Under the pieces are notes generated by a model. That model was not told the DNA's origin, made no database searches, and saw only the letters and a program-made list of their open reading frames with translations. Positions 336 through 16,066 of a stretch of DNA of 64,000 nt are shown in pieces (position 1 is the first letter of the stretch; each line of letters starts with the position of its first letter). The stretch spans positions 2,521-66,520 of the forward strand of contig JACAAW010000004.1 in NCBI GenBank assembly GCA_013377115.1, given 5' to 3'. A program made the translations under genes and the position numbers. The DNA comes from Bacteroidota bacterium (lineage in GTDB: Bacteria > Bacteroidota > Bacteroidia > Bacteroidales > CG2-30-32-10).

Positions 336-2630
336 ATGCGAAAAAACGCTACTAATGTTATTACATTATTGACATTTATCAGTACATTTTTTATAGCTTG
401 TTTAATTTACGCAGAAAAAAATGGATTTAATTTTTGGAAAAAATCAGTAAAAAACCAAACAGAGTTAAACGCGCTACCGCATGGCACTTGCAATTCCTGC
501 CATATTAATCACACTGCTCCAGGAGGAGAACTAACCTCTGTTAATGGAAATGCTAATCTCTGTATTAGTTGTCATAACGCAGCCGGATCTGCAAGTACTT
601 TACCTTTTGCAAATGTTGATAAAGCAATTCCTGGAATTAGCGGCAATTCTCATAGTTGGGATAAAATTGGAGTAAACGCAATTTTCGAAACAAATACCCC
701 ATCTAATTCTGATATGTCTTCAAGAATGCCTGGCGGAAACATTATTTGTTCAACCTGCCATAACCAGCATTTACAAGACTTCCCTCCTTTCCTTCGTGCT
801 TCAAATTCAGGAGATGCGTTATGCAAAGAATGTCACTCCGCCAGAGATGTTGGAAATTATTTAACCAACACAACATCAAATAAAGGAAGTCATCCAGTTG
901 GCATCACCTATAACAATACTGATTCTAGATTTTTAATTTCACCTTTATCGCCAATGACATTGGTTAACTCAAAAATCGAATGTTCAAGTTGCCATAGTGT
1001 TCATTATGCAGCAACTAATGACGGAAATTTATTAAGAGCAACCAACAACGATGCCTTATGTGCTAATTGTCATACTTATGGAATGCATCATGGAATGTCG
1101 TGTTCTGCTTGTCATCAGACACACAATCCAAATAAAACAAATATTTTCATGGTTAAAGATAGTATACAGACACCATCAAGTGGAAAAGTTGCTGTTATTT
1201 TATCTTCTGAAACCGGTTCAAATTCTTATGCTGATGGAGATGCAAACTACAATGGAATATGCGAAGCTTGTCATACAACCACCGCTTATCATAGAAATGG
1301 AAGTTCTGGGAATCACTCACACAATACTGGAGCGAATTGCATTGGTTGTCATCCGCATAAAGATGCTTTTAGCGCTGGTGATTGTATTACTTGCCACGCA
1401 TTAGCTCAAGATAATGGAGATGGGATTCCAGTTGGAGGAAGAAGAGCAATAATTGGAGAATTTCCTGCCAGTAATGCCCACGCTCATTATGGTGCAGCGA
1501 TAAACGCGCAATCTTGCCAAGTTTGTCATGATATGTCTACCCACAAAAGTGGAATTGTCAAACTAATTGATGCAGATAATAGTTCAATCTATCAGTTTGT
1601 AAAACCTGAAAATTTAACTACTGATCCTGATGTTTCAAATTTCTGTATGAGTTGTCATGATGCAAATGGAGCAACGAGGTTAGCGACACCTTTAGATCCA
1701 TTTGGTAATGGAAATATTGCTCCAGATGTGAAATTAAAATTTCAAGGAACTTTACAATGGAATGAATGGTACGGCGATTTCTGTTTTGGAGATGAAGGCA
1801 CATTAAGAGCGGTAAATAGTCATCATGACATAAGCAATGCAGATCAAACATTTAGTGGTGCAAAAATTGAATGTTTAAATTGTCATGGTGCTCATATTTC
1901 ATCAGCAACATCAAAAATTGCAAATCCAAATAGCACCAATTCTGTTTGGGCTGGCACTTATAATGATTTCTGCTTAACATGTCACAGTGGAGGAACGGGA
2001 CCAACCACCCCTGGATTTCCTACTGGTGTAACAGGTCCAACGATTGCATTAAGAGGTTTAGAATCTTGTGGATATACTGCAGCACCTTGGTATGTTGACT
2101 ATATTTGGTCAAATAGTGCACATGGGTTAAATTCAAAACGACCTTGGACTGGATATTCTGGTGCGCCATCTTATAATATGTCATGCAAAGATTGCCACGA
2201 CCCTCATGGTTCTTACACTCCAACAAATACTGCTGGAAACCCATATATGATAAAAGATTATGTTGATGGCAGTTTGTTCGTGGATGACGGCGATCGTAAT
2301 ACTGGGCCATGGACAGGTCCGCCATGGACCACCTTTGGATTAAGCAGAGCTGTAAAAATCACTATTTCAGGAACAGATGTTAATTGGGGATCTCCGACAG
2401 GATTATGCAGTGTTTGTCATCCAAATTGGGAAAATGCATATGACTGGCACTCCTATTGTGGTGCATGTCAAACTTGCCATGGACATGGCCAAGCTTTTGG
2501 TGAAAATGACTGGGGTGGTGGTGGAAATTCCATACCTTGCGGTGGAAAAAGCACCCAATTAAAAATAATTGAATTAAGTAAGGAAAAAAGCAAAGTCAAA
2601 TTACATTCAAAATCTCTAGAAAAGAAATAA
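336..2630 (+). CDS. Large multiheme cytochrome c, 17 CxxCH motifs
   Basis: 17 CxxCH counted, many as CxxCHxxH...LCxxCH pairs; N-terminal signal/TM segment; Lys-rich C-terminal tail. Confidence 0.93.
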   Translation: MRKNATNVITLLTFISTFFIACLIYAEKNGFNFWKKSVKNQTELNALPHGTCNSCHINHTAPGGELTSVNGNANLCISCHNAAGSASTLPFANVDKAIPGISGNSHSWDKIGVNAIFETNTPSNSDMSSRMPGGNIICSTCHNQHLQDFPPFLRASNSGDALCKECHSARDVGNYLTNTTSNKGSHPVGITYNNTDSRFLISPLSPMTLVNSKIECSSCHSVHYAATNDGNLLRATNNDALCANCHTYGMHHGMSCSACHQTHNPNKTNIFMVKDSIQTPSSGKVAVILSSETGSNSYADGDANYNGICEACHTTTAYHRNGSSGNHSHNTGANCIGCHPHKDAFSAGDCITCHALAQDNGDGIPVGGRRAIIGEFPASNAHAHYGAAINAQSCQVCHDMSTHKSGIVKLIDADNSSIYQFVKPENLTTDPDVSNFCMSCHDANGATRLATPLDPFGNGNIAPDVKLKFQGTLQWNEWYGDFCFGDEGTLRAVNSHHDISNADQTFSGAKIECLNCHGAHISSATSKIANPNSTNSVWAGTYNDFCLTCHSGGTGPTTPGFPTGVTGPTIALRGLESCGYTAAPWYVDYIWSNSAHGLNSKRPWTGYSGAPSYNMSCKDCHDPHGSYTPTNTAGNPYMIKDYVDGSLFVDDGDRNTGPWTGPPWTTFGLSRAVKITISGTDVNWGSPTGLCSVCHPNWENAYDWHSYCGACQTCHGHGQAFGENDWGGGGNSIPCGGKSTQLKIIELSKEKSKVKLHSKSLEKK

Positions 2631-2696: not shown

Positions 2697-2814
2697 GTGA
2701 AAAATTATTGTATTTTAGAATATTGTTATTATTTTTACAGGCTAAATTGAGCAAATATTTTAATTCAACATTAGAATTTGTTAAATAATTAACACCCTAT
2801 TGGGATACTATATA

Positions 2815-3867
2815 ATGAAATCGCTTTTCTCACGTAATATATATGCAATAAATTTGATAGTAATTGCTATTATGCAATTACAAAATATTGCTTATGCTCA
2901 AAATGATTTAGGCAAAGACAATTTTCAAAATGGTGATATTAATTATGTCAAATATATTAACCAATTCCCATCTATAGATAAAGGAAAATCTTCAAATTTT
3001 TTCGAAAAAGTTACTGATTTTATAATTGGAGAAAAAGAAACTCCATTATTAATCAAGCCTATGTCAGTAATTGCAATAAACCCTGATTCTTTTCAAATAT
3101 TAGATCAAGGAAATGGATTGGTATTTCAAATACAAAATCAAGAAAGTGAAATTCCAAAGTTTTTTAAAAAACGAAAAGACAAATTAACTTCATTGGTTGG
3201 TATTTGCGAGAACTCAACAAAAGATGTGTTAATAACCGATTCTAAACTCAATAAAATTTTCAAAATTAGTGCTGATAAAAAATCGATTACTATTCTTAAT
3301 GATTCATTAAAACTAAATCAACCTACAGGAATTTCTTTTTCAAATACAACAAAGGAAATTTGGGTAGTTGAAACTGGGGCACACCAGATTTCAATTTTAG
3401 ATGAAAATGGTAACTTGAAGAAAACTATTGGTAAACGAGGAACCCAAAATAGTGAATTTAATTTTCCAACTTATTTAAGTTTTGACAAAAAAGGAAATGC
3501 CTATGTTGTTGATGCCATGAATTTTAGAATTCAAATTTTTGACAAATCGGGTAATTTTGTTTCCACATTTGGAGAAATCGGTGATGCTACTGGCTATTTT
3601 TCAAGACCAAAAGGAATTGCAATCGATTCGACTGGAAACATCTACATTGTTGATGCTCTGTTTAATACAGTGCAAATTTTTGACAATACTGGAGCCTTTT
3701 TATATCAATTTGGCAAACAAGGTCAGAATAAAGAAGAATTTTGGATGCCAACAGGCATTTTTATTGATAAAAAAGATTATATATATGTGGCAGATAGTTA
3801 TAATGCCAGAGTTCAAATATTTCAACATGTTTATGAAAAAGGAAATGAAAAAAGCATTAAAAATTAG
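2815..3867 (+). CDS. NHL-repeat beta-propeller protein (secreted)
   Basis: Repeated F..P.GI..D..GN.YVVD...RIQIFD units; signal peptide from ATG 2815 (track start is TTG 2800). Confidence 0.9.
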   Translation: MKSLFSRNIYAINLIVIAIMQLQNIAYAQNDLGKDNFQNGDINYVKYINQFPSIDKGKSSNFFEKVTDFIIGEKETPLLIKPMSVIAINPDSFQILDQGNGLVFQIQNQESEIPKFFKKRKDKLTSLVGICENSTKDVLITDSKLNKIFKISADKKSITILNDSLKLNQPTGISFSNTTKEIWVVETGAHQISILDENGNLKKTIGKRGTQNSEFNFPTYLSFDKKGNAYVVDAMNFRIQIFDKSGNFVSTFGEIGDATGYFSRPKGIAIDSTGNIYIVDALFNTVQIFDNTGAFLYQFGKQGQNKEEFWMPTGIFIDKKDYIYVADSYNARVQIFQHVYEKGNEKSIKN

Positions 3868-5545
3868 TATTGGTATTTTATTGGTAAGTGTATCATTTTT
3901 CAGTAATTCACAATCAATAGTTACAACAAAGCACAATTTATCAGTTTCAGGGACTGGTAGCGTTAAAGCTGTAACAGAATCTGAAATTTGCAAGTTTTGT
4001 CATACACCTCATATGGGTAGTCCGGCAGCACCATTATGGAATAGAACAATATCTGGAGCATCTTATACTTTATACAACAGTTCCACGATGAATGCTATTC
4101 CTGGTCAGCCTGACGGATCTTCAATATTATGTTTGTCATGCCATGATGGAACTATTGCTTTGGGAAGCATTATGAGTTCAGTTACTCCGATTGCAATGAC
4201 TGGTACAATGCAAAGAGGAAATCTGACAACAGATTTATCAAATGACCATCCGATTTCCTTTGTTTATAATGCATCTTTGGCTAGTACTGACGGACAATTA
4301 AAAACTCCTCCATTATCAACAATTCCACTTGACAATAATTCAAGAGTTCAGTGCACATCTTGCCACGATTCACACAAAAATTTATACACAAAGTTTTTAA
4401 GAGCTAGTAATGAATCTTCAGCTTTTTGTTTTTTATGTCATGATAGAACATATTGGGCTTCATCGACTCACAGCTCCTCAACAAGTACATGGAACGGAAC
4501 TGGAACAAATCCTTGGGGACACATGGAATTTCCATATTCAAACGTTTCAAAAAATGCTTGTGAAAATTGCCATGCACCTCACAATGCACAAGGAAAAAAT
4601 CGATTGTTAAAATCCATTACAGAAGAAGGCAATTGTTTGGATTGTCACAATGGCAATGTAGCAGCTTCAACCAAAAACTTGGTGAATCAATTTGCAAAAA
4701 CCTACAAGCATAATGTTGCAGGTTATATTAATATTCACGATCCAAATGAATCAAATTCAGTAACAACCCAACATGTTGAATGTGTTGATTGCCACAACGC
4801 ACATGCCTCAAATGCCACTACGGCGTCAGCTCCAAATATTAATGGATCAATGATTGGTGTTAAAGGAATTAATCAATCAGGAGTTGCCATTACATCAGCA
4901 AACTATGAATATGAAATTTGTTATAAATGCCATGCAGGAAACACCTGGTCTCCAGCATCAGCGACTTCAAGAGTTATTTCTCAAAACAATGTACGTCTTG
5001 AATTCGCAACAACGAATCCTTCTGGACACCCAGTTGCAGGTGCAAGAAACATCAGTGAAATAACGACCAATTTAATATCTCCAAATACTGCATCTACTGT
5101 GATTTACTGTACAGCATGTCATGCAAGCGATGGAGCTAGCTCTCCAGCAGGCCCTCATGGATCAATCTACCCTCAAATATTAAAATTACAATACTTGAAA
5201 AATGATGGTGCATCCTCAGCAAATGGGACAACAGAGTCGGCATCAGCGTATGCCCTTTGTTACAGCTGTCATAATAGAGCCAATATTATTAATAATGTTA
5301 GCACCTTCCCTGAACATAAATTACATATTGTAGATCAAAGAACTCCCTGCAATACTTGTCATGATCCTCATGGGATTAGCAGTACTCAGGGAACCTCTGC
5401 TAACAATTCAAACCTTATCAACTTCAGATCAGGTGTTGTAACGCCTGCAGGAACCTTATTAAGGTTTGTGGATACTGGAGTTAGACATGGTTATTGTCAA
5501 TTGGTTTGTCATGGTCAAACTCATGCTGCAAGTATGTTCTATTAA
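3845..5545 (+). CDS. Multiheme cytochrome c (11 CxxCH + 1 CX3CH) with N-terminal OmcE-like tetraheme domain
   Basis: Start reassigned to ATG 3845 (MKKALKISIGILLV, signal peptide); 11 CxxCH plus terminal CQLVCH; first ~200 aa colinear with 5904-6536. Confidence 0.92.
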   Translation: MKKALKISIGILLVSVSFFSNSQSIVTTKHNLSVSGTGSVKAVTESEICKFCHTPHMGSPAAPLWNRTISGASYTLYNSSTMNAIPGQPDGSSILCLSCHDGTIALGSIMSSVTPIAMTGTMQRGNLTTDLSNDHPISFVYNASLASTDGQLKTPPLSTIPLDNNSRVQCTSCHDSHKNLYTKFLRASNESSAFCFLCHDRTYWASSTHSSSTSTWNGTGTNPWGHMEFPYSNVSKNACENCHAPHNAQGKNRLLKSITEEGNCLDCHNGNVAASTKNLVNQFAKTYKHNVAGYINIHDPNESNSVTTQHVECVDCHNAHASNATTASAPNINGSMIGVKGINQSGVAITSANYEYEICYKCHAGNTWSPASATSRVISQNNVRLEFATTNPSGHPVAGARNISEITTNLISPNTASTVIYCTACHASDGASSPAGPHGSIYPQILKLQYLKNDGASSANGTTESASAYALCYSCHNRANIINNVSTFPEHKLHIVDQRTPCNTCHDPHGISSTQGTSANNSNLINFRSGVVTPAGTLLRFVDTGVRHGYCQLVCHGQTHAASMFY

Positions 5546-5903: not shown

Positions 5904-6536
5904 ATGAAACTAAAAAATTTATTTTTTGCAGTAACGCTTGTATTAGCTTTTACTCAAATGAGCTTTGCTCAAACTATTGTGGGTTCTGCTCATGATTTTT
6001 CTTCTCAAGCTTGGAATACTACTGGAGAAATTTGTATCGTATGTCATACTCCTCATGGTGCCATCACAACTGTTAGTAATGCTCCTTTATGGAATCACCA
6101 AGTAACTGCAACAGCTGCATTTACTCTTTATTCAGGATCAACCTTTAATGGTGCATCCACAATTACTCAACCAGATGCTAGCTCAAAATTATGTTTAAGC
6201 TGTCATGATGGTACTGTTGCTCTTCAAAACTTCAGCGGTACAACAGGTGCTGGTACTACAATTAGTTCTTTCTATAATGTTGGAACTAACTTAGCAAACG
6301 ATCACCCAATTTCTTTTGATTACAATGCAGCTTTAGTAGCAGCTGACGGTGGTGGATTAAAAGATCCAACAACTGCTTTAGGTATTGGAACTCAAACTAT
6401 TCAAAACTCTATGTTATTTTCTAACAAAATGCAATGTGCTTCTTGTCACGATGTTCACAACAGTGCAGGTATTGCTTTCTTATTATTAAAATCTAATGCT
6501 GCAAGTGCACTTTGTTTAACTTGCCATAATAAATAA
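5904..6536 (+). CDS. Tetraheme cytochrome c, OmcE-like (candidate nanowire subunit)
   Basis: Signal peptide; 4 CxxCH; motifs AHDFS, ICIVCHTPH, PLWN, FTLY, CLSCHDG, LANDHP, CASCHDVH, LCLTCHNK follow Geobacter OmcE in order and spacing as I recall it. Confidence 0.85.
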   Translation: MKLKNLFFAVTLVLAFTQMSFAQTIVGSAHDFSSQAWNTTGEICIVCHTPHGAITTVSNAPLWNHQVTATAAFTLYSGSTFNGASTITQPDASSKLCLSCHDGTVALQNFSGTTGAGTTISSFYNVGTNLANDHPISFDYNAALVAADGGGLKDPTTALGIGTQTIQNSMLFSNKMQCASCHDVHNSAGIAFLLLKSNAASALCLTCHNK

Positions 6537-6616: not shown

Positions 6617-7690
6617 ATGATGAATAAACTATATTATAATTTTCTTTTTATCGGAATTGCTTTAATTCTAACTTTCTCATCTTGTAATAAAAACGGTGTT
6701 CCGAAAAAAACAACAGATATTGTTATTTATCCTACCCCACCTGATACAGCTAGAATCCAATACCTAACTAGTATCAGTGATTCAAAAAATATTACTGGAA
6801 GACGAAATGCTTTTCTTAGATTTGTTTTAGGCGATTTTCAACCATATCCGTTGGTAAAACCATACGGAATTGCTGTTAAGAAAGGTAAAATATACATTTG
6901 TGATACTGGGTCCAATGGAATTACCATTATTGATTTAGCTAAAAAATCTTTAATCCCATTTTTCCCAAAAGGGAAAGGTCAATTAAAAGCCCCAATAAAT
7001 TGTTTCGTTGATGACAACGAGTATTTGTACGTTGCTGATGGCGAAAGACGTCAGGTTGTTGTTTTTGACAAAAAAGGTGAATATGTAAACGCATTTGGAG
7101 AAACAGAAAATTTTAAACCTACAGATGTTTTTGTAGTTAATGATAAAGTTTATGTTGTTAATTCCAAAAATAACAGAATAAATATTTATAAAAAAGGAAC
7201 TTTTGAATTACTATCTTTTTTCCCTGAGTCTGGACAAGGTAGTGAGGATTTTTTATATACTCCAGTTAATATTTATGTGAGCCCTGATAAAGTTTACGTA
7301 AGTGACATGGGAGACTTTAAAATAAAGAAATATACTCTTGAAGGAAAATATATTAACTCTGTTGGGAGTTATGGAAAAAATTTAGGCCAATTTGTTCGTC
7401 CAAAAGGAATTGCAGTTGATAAAGAAGAAAATCTTTTTGTTGTTGATGCAGGTTTTGAAAATACACAAATATTTGATAAACAAGATCGTTTATTAATGTA
7501 TTTTGGAGGTCCTTACAAAGCTCCTGGAGATATGTGGCTGCCAGCCAAAATTACACTTGACTATGAGAATCTTCAATATTTTCAAAAATATGTAGATCCA
7601 AGTTTTGAGCTAAAATATTTAATTTTCGTAACAAATCAATATGGTCCGGATAAAATTAGTGTATACGGAGCTGTTGGTCCAAAAAAATAA
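6617..7690 (+). CDS. NHL-repeat beta-propeller lipoprotein
   Basis: Lipobox LTFSS-C; NHL repeats (PYGIAV, PKGIAVDKEENLFVVD). Confidence 0.9.
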   Translation: MMNKLYYNFLFIGIALILTFSSCNKNGVPKKTTDIVIYPTPPDTARIQYLTSISDSKNITGRRNAFLRFVLGDFQPYPLVKPYGIAVKKGKIYICDTGSNGITIIDLAKKSLIPFFPKGKGQLKAPINCFVDDNEYLYVADGERRQVVVFDKKGEYVNAFGETENFKPTDVFVVNDKVYVVNSKNNRINIYKKGTFELLSFFPESGQGSEDFLYTPVNIYVSPDKVYVSDMGDFKIKKYTLEGKYINSVGSYGKNLGQFVRPKGIAVDKEENLFVVDAGFENTQIFDKQDRLLMYFGGPYKAPGDMWLPAKITLDYENLQYFQKYVDPSFELKYLIFVTNQYGPDKISVYGAVGPKK

Positions 7691-7700
7691 TTCATTTTAA

Positions 7701-8273
7701 ATGTTCAATAAAGTAAGATATCTCGTCTCCCTAATAACGATAGTAATGATTACTCTTATTATTGGGTGTTCTCCAAAAAGTAATTATAAATTACTTTCAA
7801 CAATGTTTGATGGGGTTCCGGATCCAAATAAAGTTGAATCTACCACCGGAGTAAAATCATCGGATAGTTTAAACGGCCAAAGTTTATCAAAAAAGAACAC
7901 TTCTGTGTCAAAAGTTATTCATCCACCTTATAAAGATAAAGGCTGTTCTAACTGTCATGAAAAAATAGATAATGTACCTTCCAGTAAATTAATAAAACCA
8001 CAATTAGAATTATGTTATTCTTGTCACGAAGATTTTTCTAAAAAGTTCACTTGGGTTCATGGGCCTGTTGCGGCTGGAAGTTGTACAAAATGTCATAGCC
8101 CACATGCTTCTGATTTCAAAAAATTACTATTAAAAGAAGGTCAGGCTTTATGCTTTACTTGTCATGATTCTAAAGATGTAATTAAAAATGAAGTTCACAA
8201 AGAAATTGGACAAACAAATTGTACAGAATGTCATAATCCTCATGGCGGAAGTGATAAAACTATTTTAAGATAA
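7701..8273 (+). CDS. Pentaheme cytochrome c lipoprotein (doubled-CXXCH type)
   Basis: Lipobox LIIG-C; FDGVP motif; 5 CxxCH (CSNCH, CYSCH, CTKCH, CFTCH, CTECH). Confidence 0.9.
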   Translation: MFNKVRYLVSLITIVMITLIIGCSPKSNYKLLSTMFDGVPDPNKVESTTGVKSSDSLNGQSLSKKNTSVSKVIHPPYKDKGCSNCHEKIDNVPSSKLIKPQLELCYSCHEDFSKKFTWVHGPVAAGSCTKCHSPHASDFKKLLLKEGQALCFTCHDSKDVIKNEVHKEIGQTNCTECHNPHGGSDKTILR

Positions 8274-8277
8274 CATT

Positions 8278-10245
8278 ATGAAGTATTATTTAAAAATATT
8301 TGTCGTAATTTATTTCATTCTTTTTGCCTCAATAGAATGTTTTTCGCAATATTCGACAGAAACTGTTCCATTCTTCAAACTTACATCATTAAATGGTGAA
8401 ATAAAGTTGAAAGGTCTTTATCGAGATCAAACTACTTATACCTATGGTTTAAAAAACACCCAAAAAAGCTCATTTTTATACGGAGGAATTATGGTGAAAA
8501 CACAAAGTTATTTGTGGACACCGAATTTCTTAGCTCTTGAAATCGACGGTGAATTCAATCCAGAAAAAAGGGAGGAAAAATATCTGATTATTCCAAATCA
8601 AGCTGAAGTAAATACCATGAGAAATATCCATATCAAAGGGACTTTCTTTCAGCAAAAGAAACTCAATTTAGGCTCTTATTTCAATTATGATGAAAACTAT
8701 AGCAGTAGAGAAAATTTGTCTAACTTGAGAACAAAAGGAAAAAGTTATGGAGCATTTTTAAATTATAGCAACAAATTTTTACCTTTTACGCTTAACTATA
8801 ATCAAAGTAATTTTATTCAGAAAGAAATTCAAACTGATAGAAATTTTATTTCAAATTCAACAGAAGTTGTTGGAAAATTCACCAAGTCCTTTTCAGGTAA
8901 AGATCGCCATGAACTTACAATTTCTCATAATGAATTTGATAGAAAAGACGCGGATTTCCTAAATATTAATAACAAAACAAATAGCGCTTATTTATCTGAT
9001 AATGTTTTCTTCGATAAGAAACAAAATTATTATTTTAATTCATTTATTTCTGCAATAGATCAAACTGGTTTTGATACTTACAGAAGGTACCAAGCAAATG
9101 AAAATTTCAATTTTAAACTTCCAAGAAAATTTAGTGTAATTGCTAATTACAGCTTTAACAGAAATGAAAGATTATTGCAAACTTTAAATCAACATAATGC
9201 AAATCTAACATTTGGAAAGAAATTTTACGAAAGTTTATATACTGGTGTTTTTTATGAATATAACAATGCTTCTCATACTTCCTATAAAGAGGAAATTCAT
9301 AAAGCCGGCATCGATTTAAATTACACTAAAAAACTTCCTACTAAAGGTTTATTAACTTTATCATATAGATATTACAGACAATTCCAAAACCACACAAGCG
9401 GAGATATTTTCTTAAATGTTATTAGAGAAGAATATACTTTAGCAGACGGACAATTTGTTTTATTAACAAAACCTTATGTTACACCAGGAACTGTTGTAGT
9501 TACTGATATTACAGGAACGATTATCTATCAGGAAAATTTAGATTATATTTTAATTAATCAAACAAATAATTTCACTGAAATTAAACGTATTCCTGGTGGT
9601 CTAATCCCAAACAATTCTATTGTTTACGTTGATTATATTGCAAAACAACCAGGAGCATATAACTTTGATGCTAGTAATCAAAACTTTGGTGCAAGCTTGA
9701 TGCTATTTAATAGACTCGTTGAAGTTTATTATAGATATTCAAGTCAGGATTACTTAACGATAAACCAAACCGAATATCTAACCTTAAATTATTTTCATCA
9801 AAATGTAGTTGGATTAAGAGCAGAGTACAAATTCGCGAGCGCAGGTGCCGAATATGATTATTACAATAGCAGTATTATCCCTTATAAATCAATGAGATAT
9901 TTTGCAGGACTTCAAGGCAATATTAAACAAAAATTTGCTTATTCATTAATCGGAAATTTACGTAACTACGAAATGATTAACGAGAATTTAACCCAAAGAT
10001 ATTCTGATGTTACAGGTTCAATAGCTTATTATATTAAAACAAAAAATAAAATCAAATTGGATGTAGGTTATATGAATCAAGTTGGGCAGGGAATAAATTT
10101 AGATTTGATAACTGCAAAAACGGAATTTACTACTTTCTACAGAAAACTATATTTTACTCTTGGGCTTGAATTTTATAAACGAACTTATCAAGGCGAAGAT
10201 TTAGATTTCAAAGGTGGATACGTTCAAATTTCAAGAAAATTTTAA
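8278..10245 (+). CDS. Predicted outer-membrane beta-barrel (porin of a porin-cytochrome conduit)
   Basis: Signal peptide; alternating aromatic/hydrophobic beta-strand pattern; C-terminal Phe (QISRKF); flanked by multiheme cytochrome genes. Confidence 0.75.
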   Translation: MKYYLKIFVVIYFILFASIECFSQYSTETVPFFKLTSLNGEIKLKGLYRDQTTYTYGLKNTQKSSFLYGGIMVKTQSYLWTPNFLALEIDGEFNPEKREEKYLIIPNQAEVNTMRNIHIKGTFFQQKKLNLGSYFNYDENYSSRENLSNLRTKGKSYGAFLNYSNKFLPFTLNYNQSNFIQKEIQTDRNFISNSTEVVGKFTKSFSGKDRHELTISHNEFDRKDADFLNINNKTNSAYLSDNVFFDKKQNYYFNSFISAIDQTGFDTYRRYQANENFNFKLPRKFSVIANYSFNRNERLLQTLNQHNANLTFGKKFYESLYTGVFYEYNNASHTSYKEEIHKAGIDLNYTKKLPTKGLLTLSYRYYRQFQNHTSGDIFLNVIREEYTLADGQFVLLTKPYVTPGTVVVTDITGTIIYQENLDYILINQTNNFTEIKRIPGGLIPNNSIVYVDYIAKQPGAYNFDASNQNFGASLMLFNRLVEVYYRYSSQDYLTINQTEYLTLNYFHQNVVGLRAEYKFASAGAEYDYYNSSIIPYKSMRYFAGLQGNIKQKFAYSLIGNLRNYEMINENLTQRYSDVTGSIAYYIKTKNKIKLDVGYMNQVGQGINLDLITAKTEFTTFYRKLYFTLGLEFYKRTYQGEDLDFKGGYVQISRKF

Positions 10246-10259
10246 TTTATTATTAACTC

Positions 10260-11129
10260 ATGATAGGATTTCAATTTAAGCTATTAATTTGGATTTTAGG
10301 ATTCAACTATTCTGTTGCAAACCAAGGTGATTTCAAAGTAGGAAAATGCTTGGATTGCCACGATGACAAGTTAAAACAAGCTGTTGTTCACCCTGTGGCT
10401 GAAGGTTGCGACAATTGCCATGTTGCAACAGGAAAAGAACATCCTGGAAGTGACAAAGGTTTTACTTTATCCCAAAAATTACCTGATTTATGCATTACTT
10501 GTCATCCTGATGCTATGGATGCCACAAAATCTCCTTTTTCGCATAAAGCACTTACTGAAAAAAAATCATGCGTTAATTGCCATTCACCTCATTCAACAAC
10601 CGAAAAAAAATTACTTCTAAAAGACGAAAAAACACTTTGTTTAAGTTGTCATAATAAATCAATTACCAGCGGCACGAAAAAGTATTCTAACATTAAACTT
10701 ATTGTAGAAAAAAGCAAATATGTTCATGCTGCAATTGAAAGTGGTTGTATTAGCTGTCATACTCCTCATGGATCAAAAACCGCTCAATTATTAAAAAATA
10801 ATTTCCCTGAAGGAAATTATGCCGATTCAAAAAAGGATAGCTATTCGATTTGTTTTAGCTGTCATGAACCAGGTTTATTAGAACTGGAAAAATCAACAGT
10901 TGCTACTAGCTTCAGAAATGGTGATAAAAACCTACACTTTATCCATTTAAAAGGACCTAAAGGCAGAAGTTGTAATTTATGCCACAATATGCATGGATCA
11001 AACAATGAGCATTTAATTGACGATTTTGTGAATTTTGGAAATTACAAATTGCCAATTAATTACAAACCTGAAAGTACAGGCGGTTCTTGTGCTCCAGGAT
11101 GTCATTCTGAGAAGAAATACGTTCGATAA
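10260..11129 (+). CDS. Periplasmic-type multiheme cytochrome c (8 CxxCH + 1 CX3CH)
   Basis: 8 CxxCH plus terminal CAPGCH; CxxCHxPH...LCxxCH pairs; N-terminal signal-like segment. Confidence 0.9.
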   Translation: MIGFQFKLLIWILGFNYSVANQGDFKVGKCLDCHDDKLKQAVVHPVAEGCDNCHVATGKEHPGSDKGFTLSQKLPDLCITCHPDAMDATKSPFSHKALTEKKSCVNCHSPHSTTEKKLLLKDEKTLCLSCHNKSITSGTKKYSNIKLIVEKSKYVHAAIESGCISCHTPHGSKTAQLLKNNFPEGNYADSKKDSYSICFSCHEPGLLELEKSTVATSFRNGDKNLHFIHLKGPKGRSCNLCHNMHGSNNEHLIDDFVNFGNYKLPINYKPESTGGSCAPGCHSEKKYVR

Positions 11130-11717: not shown

Positions 11718-12425
11718 TTATTTTACAATTTTTCCTTCTTCAACAATTACTTTATAGAAATAACCGTATCCAAAATCTTTATCTAAAGCAACTTTTCCTT
11801 CAACTGTGATTACATCACCAACTTTTACTTCTAAATCAGTAGTAATAGTTAAATCAAAATCTTGACCATCTTTGGTTCCATCTTGTAAATGTATCCAATT
11901 TTTACTCATAATTGCCTGACTAAATTTTACAACTTCACCTTTAACTTTTACAGTTTTTCCGTTGTAATTTTTCTTGTTTTTGAACAATTCAGCAACAGTA
12001 ATTCCACCAGCAGCAGCTTCAACTTTAACTTCTTTTTGCTCCAATTTAGGTTTTGTTGGCTGCATTGAATTATTCATTTCATTTTGTTTTTCCTTTTTTT
12101 GGCCAGGAACAATTGGTTCATTGCTAACACTTTCCAAAAAGATAACTTTTGCAAAAGTTCTATTTAATTCTTTACTTTTGAAATCAACCATGTCCATTCC
12201 ATTTTCGTAATAATAAGTAGAACCCACTTTTGCATCCATCGAAGGAACAGCTAACCAATTCTCGATATCATCTTCTTTTACACGAAGATAAGTATACTCA
12301 GTAGTTTGAAGAACTTCTTGACAAACAACTTTATGAACTCCAGCAGCAACATCTTTTGAACTTTTATTTGACTGACAAGCTGTCATAAACATAACAACAG
12401 CAATTAGGCTAAAAATAATTCTCAT
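11718..12425 (-). CDS. NrfJ-like lipoprotein with C-terminal OB-fold domain
   Basis: Lipobox FMTA-C; YTYL...WLAVP...M.DFKSKELNRTF.K(V)IF resembles NrfJ; C-terminal KGEVVK...NWIHLQDG...GDVITVEG...DKDFGYGY. Confidence 0.65.
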   Translation of the reverse strand: MRIIFSLIAVVMFMTACQSNKSSKDVAAGVHKVVCQEVLQTTEYTYLRVKEDDIENWLAVPSMDAKVGSTYYYENGMDMVDFKSKELNRTFAKVIFLESVSNEPIVPGQKKEKQNEMNNSMQPTKPKLEQKEVKVEAAAGGITVAELFKNKKNYNGKTVKVKGEVVKFSQAIMSKNWIHLQDGTKDGQDFDLTITTDLEVKVGDVITVEGKVALDKDFGYGYFYKVIVEEGKIVK

Positions 12426-12910: not shown

Positions 12911-15900
12911 ATGAAAAAAATTTGGAATTTACTCACCTCATCAGCGCTTACTCTAATATTATTATTACTTTTTGCAATAGCAATTGGCGTTGCCACTTTT
13001 ATTGAAGATAAATTTGACACAATTACTGCCCAAACTTTAATTTACAAATCAAAATGGATGGAAATCTTATTGATTTTATTGGCTGTTAATTTTATTGGCC
13101 ATATTAACAGATACAAATTACTTAGTTATAAGAAATTAACTGGATTTATTTTTCATTTCGCTTTTGTATTGCTTATTGTAGGCGCAGGAGTTACCAGATA
13201 TAATGGATTTGAAGGTACCATGCACATCAGAGAAGGACAAACTTCAAGTGTTATTTACACTTCTAATGGATTTTTGCAAATAACCGCAAATGAAAATGGT
13301 AAAGAATACAAGAAAGATTATGAATTAGATTTAAGCCCATTCCTAAACAATTCCTTTAGTACAGAATTGAAAATTGAAAATAAAGGGTCTATTGATTTTG
13401 TTTATAAAAATTATATAAAGAATGCAGTTGAAGTTATTGAGGAAAACGCAGCCGGTGGCTCAAATATTATTGAACTATCCTTTGCTGTTGAAAACAATTT
13501 GCAAAAAATTTATTTAAAAAATGGCGAAGTAAAGGAAATTGGAAATGTTGCAGTTGCATACAATAACAATACTAGAAAAGATGCCATTAATATCACTGAT
13601 GATAAAAATGGCCTAAAATATTCTGCTCCTTTTGGCACTATAATTTCAAGCATGACCGAAGCCAAAACAGATACTGTTGCCAAAGATTCAACTGCCGCTT
13701 TTGTGGAGAATTATTTATATAAATCAGAGACCTTTATTTTCTCGTTTTCAAAATTTTATAGAAATGCAATCACAAAATTAAAACCTGCTGAGGAAGGTCA
13801 AGAAGGAATTGATGCTCTTTTATTAGATGTAAGCTATAACGGCGTTTCAAAAGAAATCACCGTTTTTGGTGGAGCAGCTTACTTACCTAATTTTAAAGAA
13901 GAAACAGTAAACGGAATGAAGTTTAAAATAGCTTTTGGAAATAAAGAAATTCCATTGCCTTTTTCAATTCAATTAAACAAATTTGTACTAGAAAGATATC
14001 CTGGATCAATGAGTCCTTCTTCATTCGCAAGCGAAGTTACTTTAGTTGATTCTGAGAAAAATATTAATGAGCCAAGAAGAATTTTTATGAATAATGTTTT
14101 AGATCATCGTGGTTTTAGATTTTTTCAATCTTCTTATGATACTGACCAAAAAGGAACCATCCTTTCTGTAAATCATGATTTTTGGGGTACCTGGATTTCG
14201 TATTTCGGTTATTTCCTTTTAACAATAGGATTTATCGTTACTTTATTTAATAAAAATTCCAGATTTGCCGCCTTGAGCGAAAATATTAAGAAGATTCGTG
14301 AAAAAAGAAAAGCCAGTGCTTTGACAGTTCTTTTTATTCTAGGATTTTCAGCATTTGGATTTTCACAAAACCCAAATACTGGAGGAAGAGCGGTTTCAAA
14401 GGAACAAGCTGATAAATTTGGTCATTTAATTGTTCAGACTTTTGACGGCCGATTTGAACCAATGCATACCATGGCTTATGATGTAATGCATAAAATTTCC
14501 AGAATGGATAATTTTACAGTTCAGGGAAAAGGAGAATTAGATGCTGTTCAAGTATTTATGGATATGATCCTTGATCAGGAATTTTGGAAATCACAAAAAA
14601 TGATTTATGTGAGAGAAAAATCTGTTCAGGACATTATTGGTGCAACTGATAAATATGCAGCTTTTAATGATTTTCTAGTGGATGGCAACAAATACAAACT
14701 TGCGGAATACGCAGAAGTTGCTTTCAGAAAAAAACAATCAGAGCAAAATACTTTTGATAAAGAAATTATTCGTGTTGATGAACGCGTAAATATTTGCATG
14801 ATGGCATTTCAAGGAAGTATGTTGAAAATATTCCCAGCTCAAAATTCCGAAACAAATCAGTGGGTATCTTGGGGAGATTCTTTGGCAAACAGGCCTATTA
14901 CTGGCGTTTTATCCGTAATAAATGAAGATCTTCAACTTAAACAATTCAATTTTTCAAATATTTTACAATTGTACTTCCAGAGAATTGCAGAAGGAAATGC
15001 TGATGGCAATTATACTGAAGCCGAAAAAGTTCTAAAATCAATTGAAACTATTCAAAAAAGTAGTCCTGTTGCTAATGCTCTACCAACAAAATCGAGAATT
15101 GACTTTGAAATTTATTATAACAAAGCCAAGATTTTCGAAAACCTAAGAAATGTTTATGGAATCTTAAGTTTAATTCTGTTAATCCTTGCTTTTGTTGAAA
15201 ATTTCAAAGCAAAGAAAAGCAAAATCCTTAGCATTGTTCTTAAAGTATTTATCGGAATTTTAGGTCTTGCTTTCATTTACCATACCTATGGAATGGGCTT
15301 AAGATGGTATCTATCTGGTCATGCACCCTGGAGCAACGGTTATGAAGCCTTATTACTCGTTGCTTGGGGAGGTTTACTTGCAGGATTCTATTTTGTAAAA
15401 TATTCAAAAATAACCCTGGCTGCCACAGCAGTGTTGGCTTTCTCAATTTTAATGACTGCTGGTCATAGTAGTTACGACCCACAACTCACAAATTTACAAC
15501 CAGTTTTAAAATCATATTGGTTAATCATTCACGTTGCTGCAATAACAATTAGTTATGGATTTTTAGGATTGGGTTTCATTTTAGGATTAATAAATATGTT
15601 TTTATATATTCTTAAAACCAAAAAATCAACCGAGCGTATTGATTTACTTATCGGCGAACTCACTTACATCAATGAAATGAATTTATCTATAGGAGTTGCT
15701 TTAGCCACTTTAGGAACTTTTCTTGGTGGTGTTTGGGCCAACGAATCATGGGGAAGATATTGGGGATGGGATGCAAAAGAAACCTGGGCCTTGGTGATAG
15801 TTATCGTTTACGCAATTGTACTTCATTTTAGATTAGTACCGAAACTAAAAAGCACTTTTGTTTTCAATGCTGCTTCTATTGCCAGTTTCGGAACTGTAAT

Positions 15901-16066
15901 AATGACCTTCGTTGGAGTTAATTATTATTTATCGAAAGGAATGCATAGTTATGCCGCTGGCGATACACCAGTTTTCCCAATTTGGGCATGGATTACGATA
16001 TTTTCAGTAATACTTTTGATGGTAGTTGCCGGAATTAGAGAAAAGATGTCTCAGAAGAATAAATAG
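12911..16066 (+). CDS. ccsA: Fused system II cytochrome c synthase CcsBA (ResB-ResC/NrfI-type)
   Basis: N-terminal TM helices, large periplasmic ResB-like region, GHAPW, W..IHV, and the WWD motif WANESWGRYWGWDAKETW. Confidence 0.93.
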   Translation: MKKIWNLLTSSALTLILLLLFAIAIGVATFIEDKFDTITAQTLIYKSKWMEILLILLAVNFIGHINRYKLLSYKKLTGFIFHFAFVLLIVGAGVTRYNGFEGTMHIREGQTSSVIYTSNGFLQITANENGKEYKKDYELDLSPFLNNSFSTELKIENKGSIDFVYKNYIKNAVEVIEENAAGGSNIIELSFAVENNLQKIYLKNGEVKEIGNVAVAYNNNTRKDAINITDDKNGLKYSAPFGTIISSMTEAKTDTVAKDSTAAFVENYLYKSETFIFSFSKFYRNAITKLKPAEEGQEGIDALLLDVSYNGVSKEITVFGGAAYLPNFKEETVNGMKFKIAFGNKEIPLPFSIQLNKFVLERYPGSMSPSSFASEVTLVDSEKNINEPRRIFMNNVLDHRGFRFFQSSYDTDQKGTILSVNHDFWGTWISYFGYFLLTIGFIVTLFNKNSRFAALSENIKKIREKRKASALTVLFILGFSAFGFSQNPNTGGRAVSKEQADKFGHLIVQTFDGRFEPMHTMAYDVMHKISRMDNFTVQGKGELDAVQVFMDMILDQEFWKSQKMIYVREKSVQDIIGATDKYAAFNDFLVDGNKYKLAEYAEVAFRKKQSEQNTFDKEIIRVDERVNICMMAFQGSMLKIFPAQNSETNQWVSWGDSLANRPITGVLSVINEDLQLKQFNFSNILQLYFQRIAEGNADGNYTEAEKVLKSIETIQKSSPVANALPTKSRIDFEIYYNKAKIFENLRNVYGILSLILLILAFVENFKAKKSKILSIVLKVFIGILGLAFIYHTYGMGLRWYLSGHAPWSNGYEALLLVAWGGLLAGFYFVKYSKITLAATAVLAFSILMTAGHSSYDPQLTNLQPVLKSYWLIIHVAAITISYGFLGLGFILGLINMFLYILKTKKSTERIDLLIGELTYINEMNLSIGVALATLGTFLGGVWANESWGRYWGWDAKETWALVIVIVYAIVLHFRLVPKLKSTFVFNAASIASFGTVIMTFVGVNYYLSKGMHSYAAGDTPVFPIWAWITIFSVILLMVVAGIREKMSQKNK

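Follow-up and report, generated by a model that had tools for sequence, protein, structure and literature searches.

The 12-haem c-type cytochrome encoded at 3845..5545 (P0001) is a secreted protein in which a tetrahaem head with the OmcE fold, including the N-terminal His tail and all eight haem ligands, is followed by an eight-haem extension. The reading that we prefer, at a probability of roughly 40%, is that the stand-alone tetrahaem protein encoded downstream builds a filament, or at least an oligomer, in which P0001 serves as a specialised terminal subunit (adaptor), with its head docking, its His30 donated and its acceptor side blocked. The features on which the argument draws are listed below for the window, by which we mean the whole 64,000-nucleotide stretch of DNA that was analysed.

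336..2630, + strand: 764-aa multihaem cytochrome at the head of the cluster (ORF list, Pfam).
2800..3867, + strand: NHL beta-propeller gene, NHL1 type (Pfam NHL, E 2.5e-23), with a 23-nt overlap with the cytochrome start at 3845.
3845..5545, + strand: 12-haem c-type cytochrome gene (P0001; UetJ-type), 566 aa (ORF and translation; Pfam Paired_CXXCH_1 and Cytochrome_C7).
3845..3916, + strand: Sec signal peptide, residues 1-24 (read from the sequence; helix 2-19 in the model).
3917..4453, + strand: OmcE-fold tetrahaem head, residues 25-203, haems 1-4, distal His H30, H56, H135 and H177 (7TFS, E 5.6e-30; Foldseek, 202/202 columns, TM 0.68).
3932..3934, + strand: codon of His30, in the N-terminal tail I-x-x-T-K-H-N-L-S, candidate donor His for the haem of a neighbouring subunit (invariant in both family alignments; putative ligation in trans).
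4454..5542, + strand: eight-haem C-terminal extension, residues 204-566, with seven CxxCH and one CX3CH (motif reading; high model confidence).
5495..5512, + strand: terminal CX3CH haem site CQLVCH (C551-H556), with H560 after it (C551, C555, H556 and H560 invariant in the family alignment).
5904..6536, + strand: stand-alone OmcE-like tetrahaem gene (P0002), presumed major partner (9YUQ, E 2e-28; 7TFS, E 1.7e-26; model pLDDT 91.8; Foldseek 7TFS, TM 0.68).
6617..7690, + strand: second NHL propeller gene, NHL2 type, paired with the stand-alone tetrahaem gene (Pfam NHL).
7701-8273, + strand: five-haem cytochrome, conduit module (ORF list, Pfam).
8278-10245, + strand: 655-aa outer-membrane barrel candidate, conduit module (ORF list, Pfam).
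10260-11129, + strand: nine-haem cytochrome, conduit module (ORF list, Pfam).
12911..16066, + strand: fused CcsBA-type cytochrome c maturation gene, near the cluster (ORF).

P0001 begins with a Sec-type signal peptide, MKKALKISIGILLVSVSFFSNSQS, which reads as having no lipobox Cys. Its 11 CxxCH motifs start at C49, C96, C170, C195, C239, C264, C313, C359, C422, C472 and C502, and the CX3CH site follows them. An earlier note, made from the sequence alone, had described about 200 residues colinear with the stand-alone tetrahaem protein (KHNLS, ICKFCHTPH, PLWNR, YTLY, CLSCHDG, DLSNDHP, CTSCHDSH, CFLCH), then seven further CxxCH and a terminal CQLVCH. This description was borne out: every motif occurs in the translation in the order given, the seven CxxCH and CQLVCH follow the head, and residues 12-201 align with the product of 5904-6536 at 42% identity (E 3e-37). 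In the AlphaFold2 model, CQLVCH lies within the sole beta-rich part of the protein (strands 540-560). A Pfam scan matched residues 234-377 to PF22113 (MtrC/MtrF domain II/IV, 49.6 bits) and found no Por_Secre_tail or T9SS C-terminal domain; a recognised Bacteroidota surface-export signal is absent from both P0001 and P0002.

The likeness of the head to OmcE extends to sequence and fold. Searched against the PDB with phmmer, P0001 matched OmcE filaments only (7TFS; 9YUQ, E 2.2e-26), and its AlphaFold2 model (pLDDT 89.7, pTM 0.86) had 7TFS as its sole Foldseek match in the PDB, with 202/202 target residues aligned at an rmsd of 3.8 Å. This goes far beyond a match of haem motifs in general. Four CxxCH motifs and four distal His, tail His included, occur in the collinear order of the OmcE family, and the predicted three-dimensional fold of the head is that of OmcE. 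In alignments of 101 and 107 sequences, the haem ligands and motif residues of the head, among them H30, H56, H135 and H177, were invariant or at least 90% conserved. The TKHNLS tail, whose His lies 19 residues ahead of haem 1, has its counterpart in the TKHDLS tail of the proven filament subunits 7TFS and 9YUQ.

OmcE of Geobacter sulfurreducens (GSU0618, 7TFS) and of Desulfuromonas soudanensis (9YUQ) shares with the P0001 head its fold, four CxxCH, four distal His and a TKH(D/N)LS tail. The two differ in size: members of the OmcE family span about 200-250 aa and end directly after haem 4 (OmcE itself at about 200 aa), whereas P0001, with 566 aa and 12 haem sites, runs 363 residues further and holds eight extra haems. 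The stand-alone P0002 is as good an OmcE relative as the head of P0001. The gene setting is also alike, since the minimal omcE cluster and the P0001 cluster both contain two beta-propeller genes, a large barrel and multihaem cytochromes, the combination that, with lipoproteins as the propellers, defines clusters of the OmcE family (PMC13712944). OmcE is proven to form filaments; for the P0001 cluster a filament is a prediction.

All 71 stand-alone proteins compared end 1-3 residues beyond the haem-4 motif, and the extension of P0001 therefore leaves from the C-terminal, haem-4 end of the head. Beginning where the stand-alone proteins stop, it would fit a subunit able to join on one side only. 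The pTM of 0.86 indicates that the modelled extension is a rigid continuation of the head in one chain; Foldseek found no PDB match for the extension. It contains 12 extra conserved His in the family alignment, including H209 ten residues past haem 4, which brings the conserved distal-type His to 16 for 12 haems, a count that does not force an end-piece model. We also considered three tandem OmcE modules (12 = 3 x 4). A profile built from residues 204-372 did align over its full length with that of the stand-alone proteins (E 1.5e-17), but this reading was dropped as unsupported because unrelated cytochromes of the cluster scored as well or better (E 3e-20) and the motif spacing differs. The only part of the extension that resembles the N-terminal tail of a subunit is a short S-x-H...W-N stretch after haem 4.

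At least 592 species genomes, from more than 15 phyla, encode a protein of this conserved architecture, and more than 120 full-length homologues share at least 57% identity with P0001; full-length homologues are also found in Gamma- and Betaproteobacteria. Eleven CxxCH motifs are present in 94 of 150 family representatives, and the terminal CX3CH in nearly all of those listed. In a phylogenetic tree, 89 heads formed one clade (SH-aLRT 98), while 65 stand-alone proteins and six Geobacter-type proteins, 7TFS and 9YUQ among them, lay outside it; the fusion thus arose once, and the 12-haem proteins form one ancient family. Cultured carriers include Lutibacter profundi, Azoarcus sp. DN11, Desulforhopalus sp. 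IMCC35007 and Planctomycetales bacterium ZRK34. The P0001 gene sequence itself was found in DNA metagenomes only, and in no RNA runs.

Gene order is conserved along with the protein. An NHL1-type gene lies directly upstream of the 12-haem gene in 71/74 loci, an NHL2-type gene follows the stand-alone tetrahaem gene in 49/56 cases, and the five-haem/barrel/nine-haem trio (7701..11129) is syntenic in other loci. CcsBA-type homologues were present in 11/83 loci, and the one in locus L004 carries ResB and Cytochrom_C_asm. Locus L011 has its 12-haem and tetrahaem genes in one frame with two TGA codons between them; when homologues were aligned with MAFFT to this read-through product (P0512), every one fell on the tetrahaem part. 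Apparent NHL-cytochrome fusions, considered as Rosetta-stone evidence, were rejected: the 860-960-aa frames in GC-rich loci are start-codon over-calls that run through the upstream gene.

The earlier note had raised the question of whether the fusion always accompanies a stand-alone OmcE-like gene. It usually does. Such a gene lies within 7 kb of the 12-haem gene in 43 of the 44 loci with flanks of at least 7 kb, and in a random set of 300 Bacteroidota genomes all seven that had the domain had it in the long form and, after inspection of the loci, also had the tetrahaem gene. The rule is not universal, because in 3 of 8 genomes re-checked genome-wide (all MAGs) the 12-haem gene was present and the stand-alone gene undetected. 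Some Desulfobacterota variants adjoin small tetrahaem proteins with no detectable OmcE likeness. Conversely, the Geobacter-type OmcE clusters (Geobacter, Desulfuromonas) from which the proven filaments come are without any 12-haem partner (see also PMC13712944); the 12-haem protein is therefore not generally required.

The large family to which P0001 belongs apparently has a name already, that of UetJ-type undecahaem cytochromes. UetJ is the 'undecahaem' product of uetABCDEFGHIJ in Candidatus Tenderia electrophaga, Tenderiales, Gallionella and Leptothrix, and is counted as having 11 haems in each report (10.1101/2022.05.06.490989; PMC10734462; PMC13386937). P0001 matches UetJ by architecture and synteny. 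Apart from 11 CxxCH and a signal peptide neither has a conserved domain, P0001 having in addition the conserved CX3CH that makes 12 haems. For UetJ, the uet preprint gives a predicted structure in the shape of a bar, an extracellular location by PSORT and a suggested UetJ-UetA interaction (10.1101/2022.05.06.490989); our model of P0001 has high confidence (pTM 0.86). A uet-like order recurs in the window, where the 12-haem gene directly follows an NHL gene (compare UetI) and is accompanied by a tetrahaem gene (UetA), a barrel (UetC) and a second NHL gene (UetH), and a System II cytochrome maturation gene is nearby in both settings.

The two clusters also differ. By Pfam scan, the cluster genes of the window include no counterpart of the PPIase UetB, the c7-type trihaem UetD/E/G or the cupredoxin UetF, and in their place are the 5-haem, 9-haem and 764-aa multihaem cytochromes; PPIase, c7-type trihaem and cupredoxin genes are likewise absent from the gammaproteobacterial loci L051 and L065. 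The host of the window is an uncultured freshwater Bacteroidota rather than an electroautotroph. Tenderia UetJ is annotated by NCBI as a pseudogene, and with a Rhodocyclales homologue and a gammaproteobacterial tetrahaem protein as queries, no match bore the name Tenderia or Rhodocyclales bacterium GT-UBC. We found no report, in the literature searched, of a CX3CH twelfth site or an OmcE-like head in UetJ-type proteins. Equivalence of P0001 with OccP (922 aa; 10.1101/695007) is not claimed.

As a terminal subunit, P0001 could work as follows. Its head would dock via the OmcE-type subunit interface, and His30 of the tail would complete the haem left unsatisfied on the last tetrahaem subunit. 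An inter-subunit His-haem bond is common to OmcE subunits (PMC9473688, PMC12307469), and we have assumed, by analogy with OmcS, that the N-terminal tail His is the trans donor in OmcE. The next-subunit side of the head would be filled in cis by the covalently attached eight-haem rod, with a conserved His such as H209 satisfying the head's own interface haem, and this occupied side would halt further subunit addition at that end. The haem chain would be lengthened by about eight haems, running toward the barrel and periplasmic cytochromes if P0001 were a base or anchor, or toward a substrate if it were a tip.

A base or anchor is favoured over a tip because a donor tail that is kept while the acceptor side is blocked would follow the logic of chaperone-usher terminators. 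PapH-like terminators of these pili, and minor pilins, offer an analogy only: there, the fibre is ended or anchored by a paralogue of the major subunit which still has the donor element but cannot take on a further subunit. The proteins are unrelated, and chaperone-usher pili use donor-strand exchange, whereas the bond made by P0001 would be His-haem ligation with a haem-pair interface. Petersen et al. 2026 (PMC13712944) draw the same pilus-terminator analogy and predict either an anchor that carries an additional histidine while 'resembling OmcE', or a tip on which more haems are exposed; they report no candidate for either in the OmcE operons surveyed.

The earlier note had read the two proteins as a major (4-haem) and a minor (12-haem) subunit that share one polymerisation interface, the latter linking or capping the filament. 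A minor subunit at the base or as a cap remains plausible, given the full OmcE-fold head, the OmcE-like paralogue, the nearly constant linkage of the two genes and an extension that begins at the stand-alone endpoint. Against it stand the proven filaments made without a 12-haem partner and the genomes in which the 12-haem gene was found by itself. Polymerisation of the Bacteroidota tetrahaem protein and its contact with P0001 are putative.

Several of these observations would also suit a protein that does not polymerise. P0001 could be a monomeric conduit cytochrome, a haem rod in or on the cluster's barrel (MtrA/MtrC-like) that exchanges electrons with the tetrahaem protein or a substrate, its head reflecting shared ancestry only; we consider this possible without being probable. 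A conduit role is the published model for UetJ and UetC (10.1101/2022.05.06.490989; PMC13386937), the P0001 model is rigid and presumably rod-like (pTM 0.86), and the partner is undetected in some genomes. In gammaproteobacterial loci, moreover, the core consists of tetrahaem, NHL, barrel, NHL and 12-haem genes only. Shared ancestry would not explain the near-universal linkage to a tetrahaem gene, however, and the His tail and full OmcE ligand set are kept, invariant or at least 90% conserved, over more than 15 phyla. The barrel in the window is already flanked by its own five-haem and nine-haem cytochromes, the usual porin-cytochrome trio. With MtrC/OmcA-type decahaem cytochromes of the outer membrane P0001 shares the PF22113 match, which is partial, and a presumed role in extracellular electron transfer, but MtrC, OmcA and UndA are lipoproteins with beta-barrel domains I/III flanking the staggered-cross haem domains II/IV, whereas P0001 has neither beta-barrel domains nor a lipobox, and its model matched no MtrC, OmcA or UndA structure in Foldseek.

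That P0001 stays in the periplasm is improbable. As a chain of about 12 haems with a Sec signal only and no export tag, it would connect quinol oxidoreductases of the inner membrane with the barrel complex, a role that has been proposed for the dodecahaem GSU1996. The cluster contains no obvious periplasm-spanning carrier, P0001 lacks both lipobox and T9SS C-terminal domain, and in Lutibacter profundi the gene comes after a Fer4/NrfD-type membrane module. Yet OmcE itself reaches the outside with no recognised export signal, the head has the fold of an extracellular filament subunit, the PSORT prediction for UetJ points outside the cell (10.1101/2022.05.06.490989), and the dedicated propeller and barrel genes fit an export and assembly route (PMC13712944). 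Least probable, and in our view very unlikely, is a repeating subunit that polymerises throughout via its head, alone or together with the tetrahaem protein, its extensions forming the side branches of a 'leaky' branched nanowire. The head does keep the donor tail and OmcE fold, and a new nanowire family has been proposed for OmcE-like variants that have five haems, the extra one exposed (PMC13712944). A 360-residue rod at the C-terminus by haem 4 should, however, clash with the next subunit, because it leaves where all the stand-alone proteins end, and the high pTM argues for a rod that rigidly continues the head rather than one on a flexible linker.

The terminal-subunit reading bears on an acknowledged open problem, namely how the growth of a cytochrome nanowire starts and ends, how the outer membrane holds the wire and how electrons are loaded onto it. 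The P0001 family provides a concrete candidate for an anchor or tip, encoded in the cluster itself, and its presence in cultured organisms opens the end-piece question to direct test. P0001 also links two literatures that have apparently been separate so far, that on Geobacter OmcE nanowires and that on uet in iron- and cathode-oxidising bacteria, and this suggests that wiring of the OmcE type extends far beyond the five phyla in which it has been reported. Extended to the family as a whole, the reading becomes more speculative, and we hold it rather unlikely that UetJ-type 12-haem cytochromes are in general dedicated end-pieces of OmcE nanowires (anchor/terminator or tip), with a head that plugs into the last tetrahaem subunit via a His-haem bond and a rod that wires the filament to the outer-membrane conduit. 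If they are, the uet and omcE clusters would be one system, and the capacity to form nanowires would reach Bacteroidota, Planctomycetota, Verrucomicrobiota, Nitrospirota and a dozen other phyla, including electron-uptake lithotrophs.

The gene at the centre of this analysis encodes P0001, and its open reading frame and translation gave the following assignment.

3845-5545, + strand: 12-haem cytochrome gene, product P0001 (566 aa)

The protein begins with a Sec signal peptide without a lipobox and carries eleven CxxCH motifs plus a terminal CQLVCH (CX3CH) 11 residues from the C-terminus; the translation contains all the motifs named in the earlier note, in the order claimed. The first 23 nt of the gene also form the 3' end of the NHL propeller gene that precedes it (2800-3867). 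The proposed colinearity of the N-terminal ~200 aa with the stand-alone tetrahaem protein also held: BLASTP aligned residues 12-201 of P0001 with its 210-aa neighbour P0002 (5904-6536) at 42% identity (E 3e-37).

The head of P0001 (residues 25-203) is a true OmcE module. Its PDB matches by phmmer were limited to the two solved OmcE filaments, from G. sulfurreducens (7TFS, E 5.6e-30) and D. soudanensis (9YUQ, E 2.2e-26), and both alignments cover residues 1-200, including the tail TKH(N/D)LS. An AlphaFold2 model computed from 107 homologues (pLDDT 89.7, pTM 0.86) had 7TFS as its sole Foldseek match in the PDB, with 202 of 202 residues aligned (TM 0.68 on the target, rmsd 3.8 A); the eight-haem extension (residues 204-566) had zero structural matches in the same search. 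P0002 is as good an OmcE relative as this head, matching 9YUQ at E 2e-28 and, as a model (pLDDT 91.8), 7TFS at TM 0.68. Within the P0001 model, pLDDT dips to ~60 in the CHTPH...PLWNR head loop (residues 51-70; window 3995-4054); the equivalent loop of the P0002 model is above 90.

P0001 belongs to a large, old family of fixed architecture. Full-length homologues at ≥57% identity numbered more than 120 in a word-indexed search; all are ~560 aa, and one comes from the cultured Lutibacter profundi. An exhaustive search of 50%-identity cluster representatives yielded 510 relatives at E ≤ 1e-30, and when one genome per species was scanned, at least 592 were confirmed. The best 80 of the latter came from Bacteroidota, Ignavibacteriota/Chlorobiota, Calditrichota, Planctomycetota, Verrucomicrobiota, Kiritimatiellia, Nitrospirota, Desulfobacterota, Myxococcota, Acidobacteriota, Zixibacteria, Eisenbacteria, and Gamma-, Beta- and Alphaproteobacteria. 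Exactly 11 CxxCH motifs occur in 94 of the best 150 cluster representatives, and the terminal CX3CH in nearly all representatives listed. In two alignments, of 101 and 107 sequences, all haem Cys and haem His residues are invariant, as are the non-motif histidines H30, H135, H177, H246, H289, H310, H320, H395, H438, H491, H494, H509 and H560; H56, H209 and H298 are ≥90% conserved. For its 12 haems the family thus has 16 conserved histidines outside the CxxCH and CX3CH motifs.

In a maximum-likelihood tree built from 160 OmcE-like domains, a branch with SH-aLRT 98 separates all 89 heads from all 65 stand-alone domains and the six Geobacter-type proteins, including 7TFS and 9YUQ. The proven filament formers cluster with the stand-alone proteins, not with the heads. 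The fusion of head and extension was a single, old event. All 71 stand-alone proteins end 1-3 residues past the His of the haem-4 motif (62 of 65 exactly two residues past it), and the P0001 chain runs on from exactly this end point. Ten residues further, the 12-haem protein enters a conserved W-x-x-S-S-H209...W-N stretch that resembles the N-terminal tail of the stand-alone proteins, I-x-G-S-x-H-D-F-S...W-N. In its own tail the head shares both sequence and distance to haem 1 (19 residues) with Geobacter-type proteins; this distance is 13-14 residues in the co-resident stand-alone type. At OmcE interfaces, one haem each is completed by a His from the neighbouring subunit (PMC9473688, PMC12307469), and by analogy with OmcS we assume that this His is the one in the N-terminal tail.

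To describe the genomic setting, ORFs were called in 83 loci and compared with the proteins of the window's cluster. A stand-alone four-haem OmcE-like ORF (200-280 aa) was present in 43 of the 44 loci with ≥7 kb on both sides. A propeller gene of the NHL1 type (like 2800-3867) lies immediately 5' of the 12-haem gene in 71 of 74 loci, and one of the NHL2 type (like 6617-7690) comes next after the stand-alone tetrahaem gene in 49 of 56 cases. The cluster is thus built from an NHL1/12-haem pair, a tetrahaem/NHL2 pair, a barrel and two flanking cytochromes, whose order differs between loci. Genome-wide searches for eight loci apparently lacking the stand-alone gene found a copy or fragments elsewhere or on another contig in five; it went undetected in the other three genomes, all MAGs. 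The 12-haem gene is genetically coupled both to an NHL propeller of its own and to a stand-alone gene for an OmcE-like tetrahaem protein.

Random genome samples were sorted into long and short forms from stop-to-stop open frames, which over-estimate gene length in GC-rich genomes. Seven of 300 high-quality Bacteroidota genomes carry an OmcE-like domain; all seven have the long form and, after inspection of three "long-only" loci, a tetrahaem gene with a propeller nearby. Among 401 Desulfobacterota genomes there were 43 carriers, 13 with the short form only. Four of these 13 were inspected and have a canonical Geobacter-type cluster (9-10-haem and 8-haem cytochromes and 1-2 NHL genes flanking the OmcE gene) without the 12-haem protein, which is therefore not universally required for OmcE-type filaments. 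The 12-haem frame extends to 860-960 aa in five GC-rich loci (L036, L052, L063, L028, L040) because no stop codon interrupts it on the way back through the preceding NHL gene, which is read in another frame; translation really begins at an internal Met that opens a signal peptide. An over-call of the same kind might explain the 922 aa reported for OccP, the undecahaem of Ca. Dechloromonas occultata.

Other Desulfobacterota carry a ~735-780-aa variant with 11 CxxCH motifs (loci L100, L104, L106, L108-L111; genomes G662, G530, G588, G368, G615, G638, G438) that retains the OmcE-like head, has its NHL gene upstream and shows a much more divergent extension. It is flanked by a ~200-aa tetrahaem protein ending two residues past its last haem motif, a ~140-aa tetrahaem protein and a six-haem protein; profile comparison found no OmcE-specific likeness in the small tetrahaem proteins. 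Directly 3' of the 12-haem homologue of genome G341, a 1193-aa ORF (L099:5120-8701, - strand) combines an NHL region (residues ~300-500) with 10 CxxCH motifs and may be a genuine propeller-cytochrome fusion; a stand-alone tetrahaem gene is absent within 20 kb. Immediately 5' of the NHL/12-haem pair of L. profundi (L004:5113-7409) lie genes for an iron-sulfur protein (Fer4_11) and a membrane protein of the NrfD type, then for small proteins and a monohaem cytochrome; this set is a candidate quinol-oxidoreductase entry point, of a kind absent from the window's own cluster. Between the 12-haem and tetrahaem genes of a Bacteroidales MAG lie genes for a histidine kinase and a response regulator dependent on sigma-54 (L006:11785-14683), which suggests sigma-54 control of the cluster in some Bacteroidota. 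The 12-haem gene and the tetrahaem gene after it share a reading frame in two loci, interrupted by two TGA (L011:8334-8369) or three TGA and one TAA (L014:11636-11755), probably by chance, as expected in one case in three.

Just 5' of the window, on the same contig (C231:1-2520 of G000), lie a 639-aa ORF (L003:6-1925) that is weakly similar to OmcE-like proteins (E 4e-7; 28% identity across 150 residues) and a 262-aa ORF (L003:1876-2664); the cytochrome cluster therefore extends past the 5' edge of the window. Two further genes stand beside the cluster.

11718-12425, divergently oriented: 235-aa lipoprotein-like gene; homologues in 9 of 83 loci
12911-16066: fused CcsBA-type maturation gene; homologues in 11 of 83 loci

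The loci with these homologues are mostly from Bacteroidota and Planctomycetota, and both genes may be connected with CX3CH maturation.

The minimal omcE cluster comprises two multihaem cytochromes, two beta-propeller lipoproteins, OmcE and a large beta-barrel, with homologues listed for five phyla that do not include Bacteroidota; the same authors pose filament termination and tip composition as questions and predict either an anchor "resembling OmcE" that carries an additional histidine or a tip with more exposed haems (Petersen et al. 2026, PMC13712944). In Ca. Tenderia electrophaga, the uet cluster encodes a tetrahaem protein (UetA), a barrel (UetC), the NHL proteins UetH and UetI and, directly 3' of UetI, the extracellular "undecahaem" UetJ, followed after the cluster by ccsAB (10.1101/2022.05.06.490989); UetJ homologues are also known from Gallionella and Leptothrix (PMC10734462, PMC13386937). 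P0001 agrees with UetJ in every feature compared, the likeness being one of architecture and synteny. The window has no counterpart of Tenderia's PPIase, cupredoxin and c7 genes. In the papers covered that mention UetJ, or both UetA and OmcE (one review aside), we found no report of an OmcE-fold start or a twelfth, CX3CH haem in UetJ.

P0001 is a UetJ-type 12-haem cytochrome with an OmcE-fold head, of single ancient origin. Our preferred reading, tentative at a probability of roughly 0.4, is that it serves as a one-sided terminal subunit, with its donor tail retained and its acceptor side blocked in cis. His30 would bind the haem left open on the final tetrahaem subunit; the eight-haem rod would fill the acceptor side, stop polymer growth and wire the filament either to the barrel conduit, as base or anchor, or to a substrate, as tip. 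The main rival, a possibility we take seriously, is a monomeric haem rod belonging to the barrel conduit. This is what the uet literature assumes, and the authors who described UetJ offered its interaction or polymerisation with UetA as speculation (10.1101/2022.05.06.490989). We consider it unlikely that the protein bridges the periplasm, and more improbable still that it repeats along the filament as a branched subunit.

The earlier note's observation is thus confirmed and its interpretation, a major and minor subunit pair sharing one interface, supported in part. P0001 is a new Bacteroidota member of an apparently named, uncharacterised family, and recognition of its OmcE head opens nanowire anchoring and termination to experiment.
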